DNA of 64,000 nt from positions 31,248,001 through 31,312,000 of the forward strand of contig NC_073397.1 in NCBI RefSeq assembly GCF_028641065.1, written 5' to 3'. This DNA comes from Leucoraja erinacea (taxonomy: Eukaryota). Under the pieces are notes generated by a model. That model made no database searches and was not told where the DNA came from. It saw only the letters and a list, made by a program, of their open reading frames with translations. How positions within the stretch are numbered: position 1 is the first letter of the stretch; every line of letters begins with the position of its first letter. Position numbers and translations under genes: made by a program. Below are positions 241 through 24,774 of this stretch, piece by piece.

Positions 241-423
241 CTGTAATTCCAACATATGTACTGCAGGAGGTACACAGGGTGTCGTGGTAAAGATTGCCTG
301 GAACATTGACCACTAGACCATCAGTGCAGTTTGTGTGTGCAATACAGCGATCCGTACTCGAGAGTGTGGGAGAGAAATATCCCCTGGGACATATTTCACA
401 CGTTGAATCGCGATAATGGGTTC
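241..423 (-). CDS. TNFRSF6B: DcR3-like paralog A, coding exon 3 (end of CRD3 + CRD4)
   Basis: ccag|GA ACC CAT... to ATT ACA G|gtatgt; 183 nt, the same length as paralog B exon 3. Translates GTHYRDSTCEICPRGYFS...CIAHTNC...PGNLYHDTLC. Confidence 0.85.
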
Positions 424-929
424 CTGGAAAACACAAGTCCATCGGATCAGTTAAAATTCATGTAGTAATTTTTTCCCCAAAAGTACTTCCAGAGAACAAA
501 ATATGTACACAAAGTAAACCTGTCCATAAACTGTTCATGCATTGTCTATACATTCAACAGCATCATACACAGCAGTGTTTACATCTATCCTAAAGCAACA
601 CACCTATACCACTTACGACCCGAAACGTCACCTATTCCTTTTCTCCAGAGATGCTGCCTGACCCCATGAATGACTCCAGCATGTGTGTGTTCATCTTTGG
701 TGTAAGCCAGCATCTGCAGTTCCTCCATACACATAGTGCAGTTTGGACAAGCTTTGCAAAATAACAAACCATGCGCTCAAGGCGATGGGTGGATAGAGTA
801 AGAATTAAGATAGACACAAAAAGCTGGAGTAACTCAGCAGGACAGACAGCATCTCTGGAGAGAAGGAATGGGTGGTGTTTCGGGGTCGAGACACTTCTTC
901 AAAATTAATATTAGAAATATTAAACGTAC

Positions 930-1107
930 CTGATATCACCCCACCGTGTGTGGCGGTGCATCGTGTTAGCACAACTGTACCAGGCCCGCACATCTCACAT
1001 AACAAATTTTCACGAGTATATGGATCGGTCCATGTGTCAGTAGGCTTGGTTCTCACCTGCACTGTTGAACTTAAAACACGTTCAGTCAACGCAAATAGGA
1101 CGAGGCA
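930..1107 (-). CDS. TNFRSF6B: DcR3-like paralog A, coding exon 2 (signal peptide + CRD1, internally deleted)
   Basis: tttcctctacag|TGC CTC... to ...ATA TCA G|gtacgt; 178 nt. Translates CLVLFALTERVLSSTVQVRTKPTDTWTDPYTRENLLCEMCGPGTVVLTRCTATHGGVISG. Confidence 0.8.
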
Positions 1108-1628
1108 CTGTAGAGGAAATAATAACCAAAAAATAATAATTACTGAAACTGTCTATCATTACCATTCACAGCATCATACCTGAAATAACTTTACTCCTTT
1201 TAGCTTCCTTACCTTAGAAATGGTCAAACTTAAAACTGCACCATCAGACATCAAGTATAGGGAGGAATTGCAGATGCTGGTTTTACACCGAAGATCGACA
1301 CAATTGCTGGAGTAACTCAGCGGGCCAGGCAGCATCGCTGGAGAAAAGGAACAGGTGACATGTCGGGTCGAGACCCTTCTTCAGACAGATGAAAGGTCTC
1401 GACTCGAACTGTCACCTATTCCTTCTCTCCAGAGATGCTGCCTGACCCGCCGAGTTACTCCAGCAACTGTGTCTAGCATTAGACATCTATCTCTATCTTC
1501 AATAAATAGATGATGCAAGATTTTATTTGATGATGATGATGATGATACATTAATGTCACATGTACTTTAGAGTGAAATTCGTTGTTTTTCATGCACTACA
1601 CAAAGTGTGCAAAGAGTCGCCACCCATA

Positions 1629-3768: not shown

Positions 3769-3780
3769 CTTGAGGATCAT
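3769..3780 (-). CDS. TNFRSF6B: DcR3-like paralog A, coding exon 1 (micro-exon, MILK)
   Basis: Minus strand reads AGC ATG ATC CTC AAG|gtaagg, identical to paralog B. Spliced in phase 0 to exon 2 it gives the signal peptide MILKCLVLFALTERVLSS. Confidence 0.7.
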
Positions 3781-3868: not shown

Positions 3869-5404
3869 CCGTCTCACGATCTTACGAAGGAGGAAAAACT
3901 GTTCTCACGTTGCGAGTTGAGACAAGAGGTACCCCGAGTGAAAGACTCGTGGTTGTGTACGAGATTGCAAGTGTATGATCAAGAGTTTAACCGAGTTCCC
4001 ACGGGTATGACAAGTTTGCCGTTTACTTGTCATTTCTGCGATGTTCCAAGTTCGTCTCCCGAGTTACTCTTGAGCCAATCCTGATTGAAGGTTTGTTTTA
4101 ATAAGCAACAGTGTTATGTTTTAATAAGCAACAGTGTTAAAGAAGACCTCTCCATCCTGTGGCTTTGTTTTAAAGATATAATTCAAAGCGGCCGCATCTA
4201 TTGATGTGAGCTAAATAGGGAAAATGCGCCCCATCCAGTGCCAGAGCAGTTATGCTATGTGATGAAGTTCACTCCCATTTGAAAATTTTGCAATATTTTA
4301 ATCATATAATCCCATTCTACTTGATCAAACGCTTTTTCTGCGTCCAATGAAACTACCAGAGCAGTTATACTTATAATTTGTTTGAAACACGCAGGTTTGA
4401 TATGTTTTAATTGAATTTGCTGCCATGTCTACACACTGCGGGGAGACGGGAGATATAACTCTTTGAATGTGGACGGATATGCACATCAGATTGTTGTGAG
4501 ACGGAGCCCAGGGTTCGCCCCCTGAGTTGCTTCGGTGCCCAGGCGTGAGTTGAGATTACCGTCGAATTCCTCCCCATCGTCCCGGCTCTACGGTTCATCC
4601 GGGAATGATGTCTTTTTGGGGAATGTCTGGCAATTTCTTCGGGGTCACCGTTCGGTGGACCAGAGATACGACGGCGAGTTCGCTTCTGGCCAACACAATG
4701 AAGGAAGTAAATCGCGTGTTCACTGAACACAGGGGGCAGCTTCTAACTCAACGAACCACGGCGCTAGGTTGAAAATGATGCTACTGAAAAGTGGCTTTTT
4801 ATTTTTGCATTGTAAGCTTGACACAAGTATGCATACTCGATTGAGAACTCATTCATTCATCCAAACTCGATTGAGAAAGTGAAGTAGGGGATGCTCTCTG
4901 GTAGCATGGATACTTTCAGTGTCGTTATGACATGTTTGTGGGACGGGGTGGAATCATGGGTGACGGATAACATTGGGGCGGCCAAGGGGCTGCACAAATC
5001 CAGATGTTCACATGTAATAAAGTGTAAATGATGATGGCAGCCGGGCGATAACAGCGGCTGTGGTTCAACCCGGAGTGTGGCAAATTGCAGAATTGAAAGC
5101 TGAGATAAGCGATTGGACAGGATAGATGCAGGAAAAATGATCCCAATGTTGGGGCAGTCCAGAACCAGGGAGGGGGGGAGGGGGGGGGGGGTCACAGTTC
5201 AGAACCCGGAGAGTTGTGAATCTGGAATTCTCTGCCATGAAGTCAGTGGAGACCAATTTACTGGATGTATGCAGAGATAGTTAGATTTAGCTCTTAGGGC
5301 TAACGGAATCAAGGGATATGGGGAGAAAGCAGTAGCGGGGTACAGATTCTGGATGATGCCATGATCATATTGACGGTGTCTAAATTAACTAAATTGTGTT
5401 TATC

Positions 5405-14095: not shown

Positions 14096-14107
14096 ATGAT
14101 CCTCAAG
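14096..14107 (+). CDS. TNFRSF6B: DcR3-like paralog B, coding exon 1 (micro-exon, MILK)
   Basis: AGC ATG ATC CTC AAG|gtaagg; yields the signal peptide MILKCLVVFVLSETVSS. Confidence 0.7.
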
Positions 14108-14357
14108 GTAAGGTGGCAATGCAACATCAAACAGCTTCACTGCATCAACTCTATGGCGCACTAGTGCTGAGATCCTTGCTTCAATGATGCTGAAGGTTTT
14201 ACTCTTAGTTATATTTTGAGGAAGCATGAGCATGAGTATATTTATTAATTTTAACATATTTTATATTTATAGACATACATATAACATGTTAAATTACTAT
14301 ATATAAAATAAGTTAAAATAAGTTGTGTATATGCATATATATATATATATACATATA

Positions 14358-14882
14358 CATAGAAACATAGAAACATAGAAATTAGGTGCAGGAGTAGGCC
14401 ATTCGGCCCTTCGAGCCTGCACCGCCATTCAATATGATCATGGCTGATCATCCAACTCAGTATCCCGTACCTGCCTTCTCTCCATACCCCCTGATCCCCT
14501 TAGCCACAAGGGCCACATCTAACTCCCTCTTAAATATAGCCAATGAACTGGCCTCAATTACCCTCTGTGGCAGAGAGTTCCAGAGATTCACCACTCTCTG
14601 TGCGAAAAAAGTTCTTCTCATCTCGGTTTTAAAGGATTTCCCCTTTATCCTTAAGCTGTGACCCCTTGTCCTGGACTTCCCTACATCGGGAACAATCTTC
14701 CTGCATCTAGCCTGTCCAACCCCTTAAGAATTTTGTAAGTTTCTATAAGATCCCCTCTCAATCTCCTAAATTCTAGAGAGTATAAACCAAGTCTATCCAG
14801 TCTTTCTTCATGACAGTCCTGACATCCCAGGAATCAGTCTGGTGAACCGTCTCTGCACTCCCTCTATGGCAATAATGTCCTT
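14358..14882 (-). mobile_element. 5'-truncated CR1 in intron 1 of paralog B
   Basis: Nearly identical to the CR1 at 9511-10025; (CTATGTTT)n tail. Confidence 0.9.
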
Positions 14883-16440
14883 CACAGAATGAGATTTGCA
14901 GCTGAAGTTATATATATATATTATTATATATATATATATATATATATATTGATCTTTATAGCAGCCAGACTGACGACGTGTCTCGTATAGCATATGTTCT
15001 CCATAGATGCTGCCTGACCCGCTAAGTTACTCCGGCACTTTGTACCTTTTTATTTGTGAACCAGCATCTGCAGTTCCTTGAATCTATAAGGTCGTTGTAA
15101 GCTGTTAGCAGTGGTTCTCTGCTGAGTAGTTGCAGCATTTTTGCAGATATGAATGATTTAGACTTCTTTCAAGGGAATTCAAGGGATTTCCATTTAAGAC
15201 GAATCTAGAAGGGTCTGGCAGACAAAAGTGCTGGAGAAACTCAACGGGTGCAGCAGCATCTATGGAATGAAGAAAATAGGCAACGTTTCTCACCTGTTGA
15301 GTTTCTCCAGCACTTTTGTCTACCTTCGATTTTCCAGCATCTGCAGTTCCTTCTTAAACTAAAAGATTCTGGCGCTTGCTCGAAGGGCCGAATGGCCTAC
15401 TCCTGCAGCTATTGTCTATTGTTCTATAGTCTAAGATACACTCTCCTGGACCATCTTTATATTTTTGCCAGCGACTGCAGTGCCTTATTTCTGCGGCAGT
15501 GAGTTGGGTGAAAAGTTTAGGGCTCGGCGTATTCGCTCCTGGACCACATTCTGCCCGTGTGACAGAATGAGATGGGTGGCGTGTGACATATGCACGGCAC
15601 AGCTCAGAATCTCTGCATGTCAAATTCATATCACTCATCAATTTGGGCTTCATTTATTGATATATGTTTTGAACATTGTAGGTTCTGCGCGCATGGCGGG
15701 GACTGATTCGAGTCATCCCTTTACTGAGATCTTAAATTGGATTATAATATAACTTGATATATTTAAATGGAGACACGTTTTGAATTTTACTCTGTGCAAT
15801 CAGAATGCAGAGGAGTTCATTCGGCCCATCGTGCCTGTGCGTTTCCTCACGCCTCACAAATAAAATGAATGAAGAGGGATTATCGGGATTTTAACCAATT
15901 TGTAACTGTCGGCGCTCTATAGGTGGCGACTCTTTGCATACTTTGCTGCATGCAAAACAAAGCATTTCACTCTACCTAAGGTACATGTGATAATAATGTA
16001 TCATTCATCATTCATCATCATTATCATCATCATCATCAAATAAAATCTTGCATCATGTATTTTTTGCAGATAGAGATAGATGTCTGATGGTAGACACAAA
16101 ATTCTGGAGTAACTCAGCGAGTCAGGCGGCATCCCTGGAAACGGTCGAGATCCTTCATCAGTCTGAAGAAAGGTCTCGACCCGCAATGTCAACTATTCCT
16201 TCCCTCTGGGGATACTGCCTGACCCGCTGAGTTACTCCAGCATTTTGTGTCTATCATCGGTGTAAATCCAGCATCTGCAGTTCCTTCCTGCACTAGATCT
16301 CTAATGGTGCAGTTTTAAGTTTAACCATTTCTAAGTTAAGGCAGCCAAAAAGGAGTAAGGTTATTTGAGATAGGATGCTGTGAATGGTAATGATGGTTCA
16401 TTTCAGTAATTATTGCCTTTTGGTTATTATTTCCCCACAG

Positions 16441-16831
16441 TGCCTCGTCGTATTTGTACTGAGTGAAACCGTTTCAAGTGGACCAGGAATAGATTTCAAT
16501 ACACTCTGGACTACTTTCGTCAGGGCCATTCCAAAAAGCAATCAGAAAGTTAGATGTAAGATGTGCCCGCCTGGTAAATATGTGGCAGCACCGTGTATCA
16601 GTGGCCAGGCAACAACTTGCGCTGATTGCTTGAAAGGCCAATACAACCCTTATTGGAGCTCCCTTGAAAAATGCCATGACTGCAAGCTCTGCGGAGAAAA
16701 TGAGGATACAGTCTCCGAATGCAATCACAGGTCCAATACGGGGTGTCGATGCAACGTTGAATCTTTCATCAATAATGGTCACTGCAAGAGACTTACCACA
16801 TGCTTCCCTGGTTATGGTGTACTGACACCAG
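16441..16831 (+). CDS. TNFRSF6B: DcR3-like paralog B, coding exon 2 (CRD1-CRD3)
   Basis: ttccccacag|TGC... to ACA CCA G|gttcgt; 391 nt. Translates CKMCPPGKYVAAPC...CADCLKGQYNPYWSSLEKCHDCKLCGENEDTVSECNHRSNTGCRC...CFPGYGVLTPG. Confidence 0.9.
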
Positions 16832-17335
16832 GTTCGTTTAATATTTCAAATATTAATTTTGAAGAAGGGCCTCGACCAGAAATGCCCCCCTTTCCTTCTC
16901 TCCAGAGATGCTGCCTGTCACGCTGAGTTACTCCAGCTTTTTGTGTCTATCTTAATTCTTACTCTATTCACCCATCGCATTGAGCCCATAGTTAGTTTTT
17001 CTGCAAAAGTTGTCTAAACTACACTATGTGTATGGAGGAACTGCAGATGCTGGCTTACACCGAAGATGGACACAAACATGCTTGAGTTATTCAGCAGGTC
17101 AGGCAGCATCTCTGTATAAAAGGAATAGGTGACATTTCGGGTCGAGATCCCTCTTCAGACTGAGAGTCAGGGGAGAGGGATACTAGAGGTATTAAAATGT
17201 ATTAGAGTTGCTGTCTGATCCGCTGAGTTACTCCATCATTTTGTGCTTAAACTACAATACAATACAGCATACTAATTCTAGATGAGTAGGAAATTGGAAA
17301 GATAGTGTGCGGTTAATGTAGCTGGTGAATGTATC

Positions 17336-17473
17336 TTCTTTTTCTTTTGTGTGGTGTGCACAGCCTAAAGTTGTTGGACAACTTGTTCTATTTGACCTTC
17401 CGTTTGTGCACTTCGAGTTGATTGTATAAGTCGAAACAGGGTGAACCACGTGACAGTTGCAATCTTCCACCCC
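17336..17473 (-). mobile_element. ~138-bp non-autonomous Vingi/Ingi-like retroposon, copy 1
   Basis: TSD GGTGAAT(G/T)TATC at 17324-17335 and 17474-17485. GAA-rich 3' tail. Same 5' end as the copy at 29211-29343. Confidence 0.75.
17420..17473 (-). ncRNA. Compact HDV-like ribozyme fold (copy 1, more degenerate)
   Basis: GGGGUGG AA GAUUGCA ACU GUCACGU GGU UCACCCU GUUUCGA CUUA UACAAUC; P1, P2 and P3 pairings are retained. Confidence 0.55.
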
Positions 17474-17779
17474 GGTGAATTTATCCTGAACCTGAGAATG
17501 AAATAAATAGTTCAACTGATCAAGTTTGTTCAAAGTAACCATTCATGTATTCTCAGTAACAAAGGCTGGATTTGGCTTCGATCACAACCACTAATGTAAT
17601 GTTTCATTTAATGAAAGAACATTTTAAGAGGTTGACATGTAGGAGATTATTCTCAAACAAGTGTCCCACTATTTTTTTTGCTTTTATTCTACTTTGTTGA
17701 AAATTATTGAGGTTTCAAAATTCATCATAGACGACAAATGGATTATTTCTGGGCAAAAAAGTTGAACGCCACAATAGGG

Positions 17780-18114
17780 AGGTTGCACGGTAGTCGGGTC
17801 ACGACCCGTGACCCGTGCTGTTGCTACGCTACGCCAACTGGAGTACACTCGATAAATTGCAGGTAAGCACTCACCATTGTTTCCAGTGGAGCGGGCCTGT
17901 TAAAATCCGCCAAAATTGTCAATTTTTGTGCTGTAAATAATTATGGAAATTGGGATAAGTGTGAGAGACATTCACCATTTGGGCGGTTTTTAACAGGTAG
18001 GAAAGTATGCATTTCGTGTATTAACAACATATACCGGAAGCTGCCATGTCCTCCAGATGGATTGAGCTGCTCCATGCGACAAGCCCTATGACCCGGTGAC
18101 CTTACGTGCAACCT
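17780..18114. mobile_element. Probable MITE remnant
   Basis: Terminal inverted repeat AGGTTGCACG / CGTGCAACCT, with further internal inverted segments. Confidence 0.45.
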
Positions 18115-18338
18115 ATACCATGAAATAATGTCTGCATTTGCATATCAGTTCCGAACAGTTCCAGAACAGAGCACTCTCTGATTTACTGACTATTTCAAGA
18201 GAAATACTTGCTTGAAGACCATCAACTGAATGAAGTTTGGGCTGCCCAAAACATGTTGGTCTCCCAGCAGAGCAAGCTGTTCGTTGGGGAATGTTGCCGA
18301 CAGTCACGCTCCAGTATGCCGGAGGATGTGCTGAGGGA

Positions 18339-20715
18339 CAGATTCAGATTCAGATTCAGATTCAGATTCAATTTTAATTGTCATTGTCAGTGTACAGTAC
18401 AGAGACAACGAAATGCATTTAGCATCTCCCTTGAAGAGCGACATAGCAAACGATTTGAATAAAAAAAAAAATATATATATAATAAGTGTCCGGGGGGGGG
18501 GGGGGGTGATTGGCAGTCACCGAGGTACGTTGTTTAGTAGAGTGACAGCGGCCGGAAAGAAGCTGTTCCTCGACCTGCTGGTTCGGCAACGGAGAGACCT
18601 GTAGCGCCTCCCGGATGGTAGGAGGGTAAACAGTCCATGGTTGGGGTGAGAGCAGTCCTTGGCGATGCTGAGCGCCCTCCGCAGACAGCGCTTGCTTTGG
18701 ACAGACTCAATGGAGGGGAGCGTGGAACCGGTGATGCGTTGGGCAATTTTCACCACCCTCTGCAATGCCTTCCGGTCGGAGACAGAGCAGTTGCCATACC
18801 ATACTGTGATGCAGTTGGTAAGGATGCTCTCGATGGTGCAGCGGTAGAAGTTCACCAGGATCTGAGGAGACAGATGGACCTTCTTCAGTCTCTTCAGGAA
18901 GAAGAGACGCTGATGAGCCTTCTTGATCAGAGTAGAGGTATTGTGGGTCCAAGAGAGGTCATCGGAGATGTTGACTCCCAGGAACCTGAAGCTAGAAACA
19001 CGTTCCACCTCCGTCCCGTTAATGTGGATGGGGGTGTGCGTGCCGCCTCTGGACTTCCTGAAGTCTACAATGAGCTCCTTGGTCTTCTTGGAGTTAAGGG
19101 CCAGGTTGTTGTCAGCGCACCATGCTGCTAAGTGCTGGACCTCCTCCCTGTAGGCCAGCTCATCGTTGTTGCTGATGAGGCCAATCACCGTTGTATCATC
19201 TGCATACTTGATGATGGTGTTAGTACCATGTACAGGTGTGCAGTCATAGGTAAAGAGGGAGTAGAGGAGGGGGCTCAGCACACAGCCCTGAGGAACGCCG
19301 GTGTTCAGGGTGAGGGTTGAAGAGGTGTGCTTGTCTAACCTCACAGACTGGGGTCTGTTGGTTAGAAAGTCCAGTATCCAGTTGCAGAGGGAGGGGTCGA
19401 TGCCCAGGTTACTGAGTTTGGTGATCAGTTTTGATGGAATAATGGTTTTGAATGCTGAGCTGTAATCGATGAACAGCATTCTTACATAAGTGTCTCTGTT
19501 GTCAAGGTGGGAGAGGGCGGAGTGAAGTGCCGTTGAGATGGCATCCTCCGTACTCCTGTTCTTGCGGTAGGCAAACTGATAGGGATCCAGTGTGGGGGGT
19601 AGGCAGCTTTTGAGGTGTGCCAGGACCAGCCTCTCGAAGCACTTGGTGATGATGGGGGTAAGTGCAACTGGGCGTAAGTCGTTGAGGCTTGCCGCAGTGG
19701 AGTGTTTTGGCACTGGCACGATGGAGGTGGCTTTAAGGCAAGTGGGGACAACTGCTTGGGCAAGTGACAGGTTGAAGATGTCAGTCCAGACGTCTGTCAG
19801 CTGCGCAGCACAGGCACTGAGCACGCGCCATGGGATGCCGTCAGGGCCAGCAGCCTTACGTGCATTAGTCCTACTCAGTGCCACGTACACGTCGTAGGGG
19901 GTGAGTGTGAGGGGTTGGTGATCGGCAGGTAGCACAGCCTTGATGGCTGTCTCTAGATTGTCCCTGTCGAAGCGGCCATAGAAGTGATTCAGCTCCTCAA
20001 GGAAGGAGGCGTCGCTGGATGTGGGGGTGATGTTGGAGGGTCTGTAGTCCGTGATGGCCTGGATGCCTTGCCACATGCGTCGGGGGTCGGAGTTGTTGTT
20101 GAAGTGCTCCTCAATCCTGAGCTTATGGCAGTGCTTGGCCTTCCTGATGCCCCTCTTCAGGTTAGCCCTGGATGAACTGTAGGCTCGAGCATCGCCTGAC
20201 CTGAAAGCGGTGTCCCGTGCTTTCAGCAGTAGCCTGACCTCGCTGTTCATCCATGGCTTCTGATTCGGGTATATGGTCACCTGTTTGAGGGAGGTGACAC
20301 TATTGATGGTGGAGTTTATAAAGTCCAGAACAGAGGATGTATAGGAATCAATGTCCGTGTGAGAGTCAAGGGTGGCCTGGGCTGCAAACGCCTTCCAGTC
20401 AGTGTTTCCAAAACACTGCTGAAGTGTGAAGTCCGCTTCCTCTGACCAGACTTTAACTGTCCTTACAGTTGGTTTAACCCGTCTGATGAGTGGGGAGTAC
20501 TTAGGGAGCAGGAACAATGAGACGTGATCAGACTGACCAAGGTGGGGGAGGGGGGATGGCTTTGTAAGCTTCAGCCATATTGGTGTAGACTTTGTCCAGT
20601 GTCTTGTCTACTCTAGTGGGGAAGGATACATGTTGGTGGAATTTGGGGAGTACAGTCTTCAGGTTGGAGTGGTTGAAGTCACCCGCAACAATGAAGGCTG
20701 CCTCGGGGTTGTGCG
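18339..20715 (-). mobile_element. Rex1/Babar-clade non-LTR retrotransposon, 5'-truncated, young
   Basis: Uninterrupted 666-aa RT region (18517-20517: KAAGPDG, FIDYSSAF, GVPQGCVLSP, KYADD, LLPSGRRYRS). Endonuclease C-terminus (VAGDFN...SDH) lies upstream, offset by one extra C in a homopolymer. (GAATCT)n tail at 18339-18370. Confidence 0.92.
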
Positions 20716-20816
20716 TCTGAACTGAAGCTCGGTGCAGCCAACGCCAAGGCTCTGTGGGGGAGGCTATTGAATGTGTAGAAATTGTATGAATAGTTTATAC
20801 ACAGTTTTATTTTGTA

Positions 20817-21332
20817 CTAGACCAAGTGCAGACCCGTTGGGTCTGCTCCCCCAATGTTGTGAGCCCCCAACCCAATATTCCACCATGCACCCGTCTCCTC
20901 CAACGGAACTGAACCCGTTCCCAAATGTAAGATTCCAGCACTCCCCTGCCTCCCTCAGCAGTGGATTGAAAAAAAATTCCAATTTAACCTACCCTGCCTG
21001 CTGCAGCAGTTCGAATTGCAATACCAATTGGCCCTCCCCCTCCTGTTGAAGCACTTGCTGTGATATCCCATTGAGGTGAAAAGTTCAGAGTGTTCTTGTC
21101 TTGCAACTTTGTTTTGAAGTGTGTTGGAAGCTGATAGGAAGGAGTGTATTATATAGATAGAACGGCATTTCGTTTGGACCTCAAGGGGTCCAAATGACAA
21201 TTAAATTGAATCTTGAATCTTGAATCTTGTATTGGGCATTGTGACATCACACGATGGAACGAATCGAAAGGCAGAAAGGTAGCCGGACGCCAGACGGCAG
21301 GCGGCAGCCACACAGTTTTAATATATAATCGA
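20817..21332 (-). mobile_element. Non-autonomous Helitron
   Basis: 3' end CTAG|T with subterminal hairpin GCAGACCC-GTT-GGGTCTGC (20828-20846). 5' end A|TCGATTATATATTAAAACTG. Confidence 0.7.
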
Positions 21333-21427
21333 TATATATGTTTTTCTCTGAATGTTCTTTTATGAAAAAAAATCCTACGTGGTATTTTCCACGAAATTTA
21401 ACTTAATCTATAAACTGTGTTTTCTAG

Positions 21428-21610
21428 GAACCTATACTAGCGATTCAACATGTGAAGAATGTCCCCGTGGCCATTTCTCTTCAACAATATCTAGTAAGGA
21501 TGTCTGTCTTCCACACACAATCTGCGCTGATGGTTTAGTGGTGAATGTCCCAGGTAACACTCAGCATGACACCCTGTGTACTCCCTGCAATAAATATGAT
21601 AATAGCACAG
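21428..21610 (+). CDS. TNFRSF6B: DcR3-like paralog B, coding exon 3 (end of CRD3 + CRD4)
   Basis: tttctag|GA ACC TAT... to AGC ACA G|gtacgt; 183 nt. Translates DSTCEECPRGHFSS...CLPHTIC...PGNTQHDTLC. Confidence 0.9.
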
Positions 21611-22272
21611 GTACGTAAAGTCATTTTCTTTTGTAGGGTAACTACAATACCATCCTTAAATACTAAAATTGTTTTCATGAAATATATTTCTATAATCAGA
21701 ATAAATCATCGGTATGTTAGGACAAAGGAGGTCCTGAGGCAGGGGGGGGGGGGGGGGGGGGTTCCGTGAGGGGGAAGGGGGGTGGGGAGAAGAAAGGTAC
21801 GTCCTGGGATTCTTTGTAACTTTGTCGATGACCTTTATATGACTCAACGCATACCCTGGAAGAAATAATTTCACTGTGACTTGACACATGTGACAATAAA
21901 GTATGCATTTTTTTCATTCATCCATACCAATCTCATTGGAGAACTGTGTGCAGTTTATTTTAGTTTATCTTAGTGTCAGTAACGGGCATTTCCTGATCAC
22001 TCATCTTACTGTAGCAACTATATTTTAAGTATTACATTTTACGGCATTAAAAAAGTAATTCATGCTTTTATAGAGTCATAGATTCATACAGCATGGACAC
22101 AGGCACTTTGGCCCAACTTCCCCACACTAATCAACATGCCCCATCTTCACTAGTCCCACATGTGTGTGTTTGGCCTCTAAACCTGTCCTATCCATGTACC
22201 TGTGCAAATATTACATATGGCATCATATTACACACATTTTTTTTAAATCTTAAGATAACCTAAAGCTCTTTA

Positions 22273-23338
22273 TCTATATATTACTAAAACTGTCATCTTG
22301 TCTCCCTGTGTGTGAATCTGTGTGCGCCGCCATGCCCAGAACTACGCCAAAACCGTACACGACAGTGCTACAATATTTGTACCACCTTACTCACAATTGT
22401 CCTGTGGTGTGTTTTTTTTTGGTTTTGTTTAGATTGATGTTATTTTTTATGTTTAGTTCAGATTGATGTTATTCTTCACAAGTTATTCACTTTTTTAACT
22501 TTACAAAACCCCACTTTGAGAACAATGACAGTTAGCAGGTATGATGCCACAATGGGATCTCATTTACATAAAATACGCTGGACACAGACATGGGTGGGGG
22601 TTCAAGCCGGTGAGGGATCTGGGGCCTGCTGCTCTAGAGCCCTGGGAGGGGGAAGGGGAGGGGAGGGGGGATGGGGAGGGGGGGGGGGGGGGGACTTTCT
22701 GTTCCTTTAAAATCCGCATGCATGCCTAACTTAAAGTCTCCGGGATTTGAAATGCTCGCAGTGCTGAGGTGGGAGCGAGGTCTGGGGGTGGCGGCCTTCA
22801 GGCCCCGCGGAGAGGGTCTTGTCCTCTCCCTCCTTCCCCTCTACTGGGGAGAAAGAAATAGAAAGAGACAAGGGAAGAGACAGAGACAGAGAGAGACGAG
22901 AGAGAGAGACACAGAGAGAGAGAGAGAGAGCCAGAGAGACACATATATATATATAGACAGAGACAGAAAGACAGACAGACAGGGAGAGACAGAGAGAGGG
23001 GGAGAGAGAGAGACAGACAGAGAGAGACAGAGGGTGTAGTGGGAGGGAGTGCTGGATGATGAGGGAGAATGGATGAGGATAGGGGTAGGAAGAGGGAGGG
23101 TGAGGTAATGGAGGATGAGAGGGGGTGGTGGGAGGGAGTGAGGGGAGGACGCAAAGGAGGGTTGGTGAAGGATAATGAAGGAGGAGAATAGGGGACTGAA
23201 GATGGAGAGTGAGATACGTTCATATTAATCTTATATTTTACAAGTTATTGTCATTTTAAATTAAAAATGTCAGCCGCTCCTTGTGCAGTTGGGAGCGATG
23301 GAACATTGCGTTGGGGCAACGGGGCCTACTTGATCTAG
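22273..23338 (+). mobile_element. Non-autonomous Helitron with internal (GA)n/purine-rich tract
   Basis: Starts A|TCTATATATTACTAAAACT and ends ...TTGATCTAG|T. Shares internal sequence with 33051-33642. Confidence 0.75.
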
Positions 23339-23574
23339 TAATTAACTAAATATGTCTATTATATAGAAAGCGGCATTCTGCATTCCATATCTGCCCCTTT
23401 GCTCCACCCATTGTAGTTGAATTTGTCGATTAATGTCTGTATAGTATCATCTGGCATGAGTGGATAGCATGCAAAACAAAGCTTCTCAAAGCTTGGTACA
23501 CCTAGCAATGATAAACATAAATTGATGTATGGCACAGTTAAATCATGGGAATATAGGAAATGCAATAACCCATT

Positions 23575-23770
23575 GGCACGGTGACACAGTGGTGGAGTTG
23601 CTTCCTTACAGCGCCAGAGACCCAGGTTCAATCCTGATCACAAGTGCTGTCTGTATGGAGTTTGTACCTTCCCCCTGTGACCGCGTGGGTTTTCTCCAGG
23701 CGCTCTGGTTTCCTCCCACTTTCCAAAGTCGTGCAAGTTTGTAGGTTAATCGCCTTCTGTAAATTGAATG
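23575..23770 (+). mobile_element. tRNA-derived V-SINE (HE1-type); representative of copies at ~26655, 30840, 35085, 37600, 38250, 41300, 44900, 58020
   Basis: A/B-box-like head (ggttcaatcc) and V-domain (tggagtttgtac...gcgtgggttttctcc...gctctggtttcctccca). Confidence 0.8.
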
Positions 23771-24490
23771 ATCCCAGGATTGAGTGGGTTAACATATCAT
23801 GAGCGTTTGATGGCACTGGGCCTGTACTCGCTGGAGTTTAGAACAATGAGAGGGGGTCTCATTGAAACGTACCGAATAGTGAAAGGCTTGGATAGTATGG
23901 ATGTTTCCACTAGTGGGAGAGTCCAGGACTAGAAGTCATGGCGTCAGAAATAAAGGACGTTCCAGTAGGGAGGAGACGAGGAGGAATTTCTATAGTCAGA
24001 GGGTGGTGAATCTGTGGAATTCTTTGCCACAGAAGGCTGAGGATGCCAAGTCTATGGATATACTTAAGGCAGAGACAGATCAATATTTGTTTAGTATGGT
24101 TCTCGGGGCTTATGGGAAGAGGGCAGGAGAATGGGGCTAGGTTTGAAGAGATAGAATGGTGTAGATTTGATGGGCCGAATGGCCTAATTCTCATATAACA
24201 TGACCTTATGACCATTTGATAATGTCTATGCTGAACATGATGCCAAGTTAAATGAACTTTATACACTTAATATGGTAATTATTGGAAGTAATCTATATAG
24301 TACATTATCACATTATATTAATCTCTAACGTGTCTGAAGTTTACGGTTCAATTAAGATTTTATTAAATGTTCTATTTTTGTGATGAATGGAAAAGCAAAG
24401 CATTGGATTTGACTGGAAATAGATCAACAGCTAATAACCAATACAGGGCGTCTAATAAAAAGCTAAATTTTGTTCCTTCTCACTCAACAG

Positions 24491-24774
24491 CATGTGATGA
24501 CGCACTTCTCCATTTTGTGGGACATCAGAATATTCCAGAAGATAAACTCGAAGCGTTTGCTCGCTTGCTTGCTCCTCCTCAATCCTTTGAGGCATTGTAT
24601 TGGAAATTGACTCGTCCCGAACACAGGAATAATCTGTTTACATATTTAGATCAGTACCTGATGAATTGGAAAACTATTATCGATGGGCAGCCTGTTGCAG
24701 AGACGATAATATCGATACTTGAAAAAGCCAAGTTGAATAATGTCCTAGCAAAGGTACTAAGCCGTTTTTGGTAA
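24491..24774 (+). CDS. TNFRSF6B: DcR3-like paralog B, coding exon 4 (C-terminal domain)
   Basis: caacag|CA TGT GAT GAC... to TAA. Translates ACDDALLHFVGHQNIP...LEKAKLNNVLAKVLSRFW, resembling the DcR3 tail (CERAVIDFVAFQDIS...VRERFL). Confidence 0.85.

Follow-up and report, generated by a model that had tools for sequence, protein, structure and literature searches.

What becomes of a decoy receptor gene when a deletion takes away the modules that bind its ligands, while the reading frame and the signal for secretion are spared? The question is raised by a 64,000-nucleotide stretch of the genome of the little skate, Leucoraja erinacea (NC_073397.1, positions 31,248,001 to 31,312,000), which we call the window and to which plain coordinates refer. 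An initial annotation of this stretch had described two DcR3 paralogs, A and B, and proposed that A, whose second exon is much the shorter, encodes a ligand-blind mini-decoy that might act as a dominant modulator or have acquired a new target; early pseudogenization was named as the alternative.

The family assignment made in that annotation has stood, for the genes in and beside the window are indeed DcR3 (TNFRSF6B). Compared with human proteins, a third skate copy, C, matches DcR3 best (E 2e-37); its predicted structure (mean pLDDT 84.7, from an alignment of 18 sequences) recovers DcR3 chains in places 1-8 of a structure comparison (human DcR3 structures 3K51, 4MSV and 4J6G); and RTEL1 adjoins the cluster, with a DEAD_2 exon at C21:31157160 and HHD_RTEL1 exons at C21:31191915-31193784, about 35 kb upstream of C and on the same strand. 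This arrangement agrees with the human one, in which DcR3 sits downstream of RTEL1. The intact skate paralogs also have the same four-CRD N-terminus as osteoprotegerin (OPG/TNFRSF11B; E 3.7e-34 for C), and the OPG gene has, like the skate copies, a short first coding exon; but these paralogs are 289-298 aa long with one C-terminal helical domain, whereas OPG has two such domains and about 400 residues, and OPG-like genes lie on another contig. The exon-2 matches of the latter are at G000:C4:79010641-79010922 (L003) and 79067102-79067374 (L004), 56 kb apart, and osteoprotegerin may itself be duplicated in the little skate.

DcR3 is present in three copies in this genome, and a search of its DNA with the exon 2 region of A found A, B and C only. 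Copy B (14096..24774, plus strand) is an intact four-CRD paralog of 289 aa that stands head-to-head with A, its exons lying at 14096-14107, 16441-16831 (391 nt), 21428-21610 and from 24491. Copy C, also on the plus strand, is outside the window, about 17.5 kb before its start (G000:C21:31228176-31233570, locus L026), and has an exon 2 of 385 nt. Spliced, the copies give products of 217 (A), 289 (B) and 298 (C) residues, and the latter two are identical to Leucoraja erinacea RefSeq proteins (P0021, which is XP_055508688.1, for B, and P0003 for C). Humans have a single DcR3 copy, against the three tandem copies of the little skate; no account of a skate DcR3 triplication was found in a literature judged by titles and the starts of abstracts, with most subscription journals outside its coverage.

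Copies A and C form an inverted duplication, tail to tail, in which long blocks match at 92-97% (about 95%), and on this similarity the closest relative of A is C, not B. The tree of DcR3 proteins leaves A versus C unresolved. As a parent of A, copy B was considered and rejected, the central part of A's exon 2 hardly aligning with it. Each of the two intact copies has peculiarities of its own. In C, exon 4 has a 1-nt frameshift close to its end that adds 12 residues, and since a 298-aa protein of the thorny skate has an identical end extension, the extension is both old and real. Copy B is strongly diverged: its branch length is 0.98, where A and C have about 0.06, its CRD1 is altered at the N-terminus and its tail is neutral (10 K+R, 11 D+E). 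Its introns are still 78-91% like those of A, and intron 2 carries a LINE-like insertion (18517-20607, minus strand) in which a 696-codon open frame contains a reverse transcriptase domain. For a change of ligand specificity, B would seem the better candidate than A.

The structure of copy A, on the minus strand, could be followed through four exons. The first coding exon (3769..3780) has 12 nt, or four codons, with the ATG at 3780 and a GT donor, and B and C have the same exon. Exon 2 (930..1107, 178 nt, AG/GT) encodes the rest of the signal peptide, three of the four CRD1 cysteines and the last residues of the CRD3 strand, and exon 3 (241..423, 183 nt, AG/GT) the end of CRD3 and the whole of CRD4. 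The last exon, sought upstream of the window, was found 775 nt before the window start (G000:C21:31247225-31246945, minus strand); it is intact, with 92 open codons for a basic helical tail and an end like that of B, and it completes an open frame of 217 residues. The splice sites, signal peptide and exon 3 had been described as intact, and both the GT/AG ends and the hydropathy agree; the signal peptide is called by hydropathy only (mean 2.36 over residues 1-12), and by the same measure no transmembrane segment is seen, the best later 19-residue window reaching 1.03. No premature stop, frameshift or splice defect was detected in the four exons, and poly(A) signals are present, both of which count against decay.

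The domain content of A is nonetheless much reduced against that of its paralogs, with 10 mature cysteines versus 20 in B and C. The Pfam TNFR_c6 match on exon 2 is partial and below the cut-off, and the exon 4 tail, which is net basic and helical in the model of C, gives a weak Death_3 match that is likewise below the cut-off. By its sequence, then, copy A is a DcR3 gene by descent but not a four-CRD protein. The RefSeq model of copy A, XP_055508687.1 (P0002), has the gap padded with 64 intron-derived residues and contains one non-GT/AG joint; it is probably mis-annotated, and the padding suggests a model forced by homology without transcript support.

As for the deletion itself, the exon 2 lengths of the initial annotation (178 nt in A versus 391 nt in B, a difference of 213 nt in frame) were recovered, and that the deletion is in frame holds good. 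Its size has to be revised: against the sister copy C, with its exon of 385 nt, the loss is 207 nt, and the remaining 6 nt of the A/B gap come from B and C differing in length at the N-terminus. The alignment of A with C contains one clean gap of 207 nt, equivalent to 69 codons and 10 cysteines. At the junction (947..949, minus strand) there is a 2-nt microhomology and, 6 nt before it, a 7-nt repeat in register, the two copies of which adjoin the junction and lie exactly 207 nt apart. A 7-nt repeat of this kind accompanies 128 of 54740 possible deletions, and 94 of these 128 are in frame; that repeat-guided deletions mostly keep the frame follows from the construction of the exon out of repeated modules. 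By 20-nt identity the 207-nt offset ranks only 27th among 270, so it is the 7-nt match alone that speaks for guidance by the repeat. A perfect module-register deletion was rejected, as it needs 79 codons and 69 are observed.

The kept frame and cysteine pairing had been read as a signal of function. Both, however, arise readily by chance. When deletions of 100 nt or more were simulated in exon 2 of copy C, 9121 of 28203 (32%) were in frame and open, and 4004 (14%) were in frame with an even cysteine count, so that chance alone yields the combination in about one deletion of seven. The kept frame and even cysteine count are weak evidence of selection.

That the deletion might be an assembly error, or an allele private to the animal sequenced, we consider highly improbable. 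In the short-read run X1, a 74-nt contig over 903-976 crosses the junction at depth 18 with 0 differences from A, its end coinciding with the point at which the sequences of A and C turn identical. Among the X1 contigs listed there is no further full-length middle segment, and a full-length exon of A, sought in this matching DNA run as a check on assembly collapse, was not found in it. Moreover, 1 site in A and 5 in a C contig distinguish X1 from the assembly, so that at least another haplotype is represented. Since short-read contigs carry the junction, a collapse is unlikely and we take the deletion as real. Some weight is left to an error or a private allele by three circumstances: the run may come from the assembly's own animal; one individual of this organism was examined; and the junction divides the contig into parts of 44 and 28-30 letters, the shorter of which is just below the 31-letter rule of the tool. 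The contig depths in X1 (16-23 for A types versus 20-24 for B and C types) hint weakly that the allele with the deletion is not a rare one, which counts against decay.

Comparison with other organisms indicates that the deletion is young. It was seen in one of the four organisms examined, in a sample comprising 4 of 14 DNA-like runs (X1-X14), one per organism, with 26 of 31 contigs listed and with contigs that show presence, not absence. Contigs crossing the site carry the full 207 nt in organisms B and D, and in organism C a loose end runs on into the full exon, with no junction contig among those listed. The A-type contig of organism B differs from A in 3 of 145 letters and has A's letters at 11 of the 11 sites that separate A from C; both this contig and the C-type contig lead into one unbranched full-length contig, which supports, without amounting to proof, an intact A-type copy in that organism. 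The thorny skate, Amblyraja radiata, has an intact 286-residue protein (217+69) with the exon-4 marks of A, on which its orthology to A rests, and a 298-residue protein with the extended end of C. The occurrence of A-like and C-like full-length proteins in the thorny skate places the duplication before the separation of these species and the deletion after it.

Two further observations concern the dynamics of the cluster. The thorny-skate proteins P0004 and P0005 have species-specific residues in common in exons 2-3 and differ in exon 4, a pattern that suggests gene conversion between the inverted duplicates. In run X5, from organism C, several short divergent contigs match window 953-1239, one of them with exon-2 letters joined to inverted exon-3-like letters; these are possibly further rearranged DcR3 copies.

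What kind of protein would the deletion leave? DcR3 binds its ligands through CRD2-CRD3. In general plan copy A still resembles DcR3/TNFRSF6B, as a soluble TNFR with a signal peptide, one basic helical tail and RTEL1 as a neighbor, but CRD2 is gone, together with the greater part of CRD3 and the fourth cysteine of CRD1. As had been described, it keeps three CRD1 cysteines (Cys41, Cys44 and Cys54) and then jumps to the end of CRD3, so that 10 of the 20 mature cysteines are lost. The deleted part also includes Trp74, which all 18 aligned homologs have in common. CRD2 and CRD3 are reported to be the ligand-binding part of viral TNFRs and of CD95 (PMC8401223, PMC7214685). From the loss of this region and of Trp74, it is predicted that copy A no longer binds FasL, TL1A or LIGHT.

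By the disulfide pattern of DcR3, transferred through the alignment, the orphaned cysteines are exactly two, 44 and 72, in keeping with the earlier proposal that the last cysteine of CRD3 could replace the lost fourth cysteine of CRD1. The pairing so proposed (41-54 with 44-72) would nevertheless have a Cys3-Cys4 spacing of 17, versus 7 in 139 of 143 matching modules from 167 proteins, and the lone homologous module with a spacing of 17 is a visibly corrupt model. The alternative pairing, 54-72, has the spacing of the native CRD3 pair, with an invariant glycine replaced and with 41 and 44 left over. In TNFR1, mispaired CRD cysteines are reported to cause retention in the ER (PMC3204872).

We regard it as rather doubtful that copy A is an expressed and secreted mini-decoy whose CRD1 is completed by the final CRD3 cysteine, with CRD4 standing in the place of CRD2 and the tail kept, the product perhaps modulating C or a new partner; and that the deletion was itself selected, because a CRD1/CRD4 chimera acted as a dominant modulator by binding C or a different TNF receptor, or had a new target, seems quite improbable. 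A selected mini-decoy would accord with the even cysteine count and the two orphans able to pair, and with the fast evolution of the skate DcR3 family, as seen in the long branch of B and the dN/dS of about 1.0 between A and C. It would also have precedents, since ligand-independent actions based on CRD1, the very mode proposed for A, are reported for HCMV UL144 and for the PLADs of myxoma M-T2 and CD95 (PMC7214685, PMC8401223, 10.1101/591883). These precedents, however, keep an intact CRD1 and have a demonstrated function, whereas the CRD1 of A is chimeric, without the fourth cysteine, and any function of A is hypothetical; and in the parts of the literature searched, a pre-ligand assembly role for DcR3 was not found. 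The deletion was seen, too, in one lineage only, and the amino acids of A over the 5' half of exon 2 recur in the A-type copy of organism B, which appears to be intact, and so predate it.

In-frame loss of internal CRDs is also seen in other DcR3/OPG-type database models, namely isoform X2 of the elephant shark, Callorhinchus (XP_007905719.2, P0095), and 225-aa forms of a snake and a shad (P0019 and P0020). These are annotated models, two of them labelled isoforms, whereas in A the loss is in the genome itself, with CRD1 running straight into the end of CRD3.

Substitution patterns do little to separate a functional from a decaying copy. In their coding sequence A and C differ by 27 replacement and 8 silent changes, a dN/dS of 1.0 that covers both branches and includes the time before the deletion. 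Private amino-acid changes, counted among 216 sites and only where the other three copies agree, number 6 in A and 5, 9 and 4 in three intact copies; they give no signal either way and fit recent loss and continued constraint equally. Positive selection on A was considered and rejected: replacement divergence exceeds that of intron 3 plus the 3' flank (p 0.017, in a test that omitted the more diverged intron 2, 32/505, and intron 1, 15/635), but it equals synonymous divergence.

It is conceivable, and deserves some though not great weight, that A is still transcribed and yields a secreted, ligand-blind protein of two modules that keeps only the non-decoy activity of DcR3, exerted by the basic tail through binding of heparan-sulfate proteoglycans (HSPGs), in a passive division of labor with C. 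The 217-codon open frame, the signal peptide and the intact tail would allow this. The tail has 17 K+R versus 8 D+E, with its basic stretch in the same alignment columns as in other DcR3 proteins, and the C-terminal domain of human DcR3 is reported to signal through HSPGs independently of ligand (PMC12884390, PMC5477258). The 10 surplus residues, moreover, are rich in glycine and their place would be at a loop, and 2 of the 6 private changes of A fall within them, a post hoc observation. Yet the tail of C is the same and more basic (21 K+R), so that A would add nothing that C lacks; two private changes of A remove lysines from the tail, while one adds an arginine; and the heparin binding of skate DcR3 is itself putative. 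To this must be added an insertion upstream of A.

This second lesion is a repeat insertion of 656 nt (3901..4556, minus strand), 120 nt upstream of the ATG of A and absent from B and C. It is a piece of a young dispersed repeat, the best copies of which are 96-98% identical to it (among the 40 of 2170 candidates that were scored), and the copies elsewhere in the genome are longer. Nested within it, at about 4254-4368, is a scrap of roughly 115 nt with a 13-nt flanking duplication, absent from the two other copies that were compared; by its motif it is putatively L1 reverse transcriptase-like. The insertion shifts a conserved block (4557..4807, minus strand), which contains an ETS-like motif, is common to B and partly to C and is presumed to be the promoter, from about -270 to -928. 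Next to exon 1 of A, downstream of the insertion, AP-1-like and TATA-like motifs survive and count against decay; among the three copies, a consensus NF-kB-like site upstream is found in C only. All four motif calls are putative. Human DcR3 is reported to be induced via NF-kB and AP-1 (PMC12884390). Expression was examined in three RNA runs of organism A (X22, X23 and X24), of each of which 1-5% was read and matched to C at 88% likeness: depth in the bins lying entirely or for the most part on C exons 1-4 was 0 to 0.17, while repeats drew thousands of reads. Neither A nor C is seen in X22-X24, and since even the intact C is missing, these runs say nothing about the expression of A.

A young, probably repeat-guided deletion in a redundant duplicate, joined by an insertion upstream, makes early decay the best reading of these data, and copy A is probably a redundant DcR3 duplicate that is starting to decay. 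Pseudogenization, the alternative named at the outset, is thus better supported than a new or dominant function, which the youth of the deletion, the intact sister and the second lesion make unlikely. The deletion would have arisen through mis-pairing of a short repeat common to two cysteine modules, an event in which the frame tends to survive, and would have been tolerated because the sister C still supplies the decoy; the insertion may have weakened the transcription of A. Any protein still made would consist of a chimeric CRD1, a surplus loop of 10 residues and then CRD4; its folding or secretion would be poor, or it would do nothing that is selected. Counted in favor of decay are the intact sister C, of 298 aa and modelling as DcR3, the Cys3-Cys4 spacing, the padding of XP_055508687.1, the chance frequency of frame with even cysteines, and the reported absence of DcR3 from mouse and rat (PMC5477258).

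If copy A is decaying, it is a case of the usual birth and death of genes in an immune cluster, of use as a dated example and for correcting the RefSeq model XP_055508687.1. If the mini-decoy were true, A would be a natural separation-of-function protein, with no uptake of FasL, TL1A or LIGHT. And should A prove to be expressed and secreted, it would provide a natural test of the separation of the decoy from the heparan-sulfate activities of DcR3, and of whether TNFR modules re-spliced from CRD1 to CRD4 can still fold.
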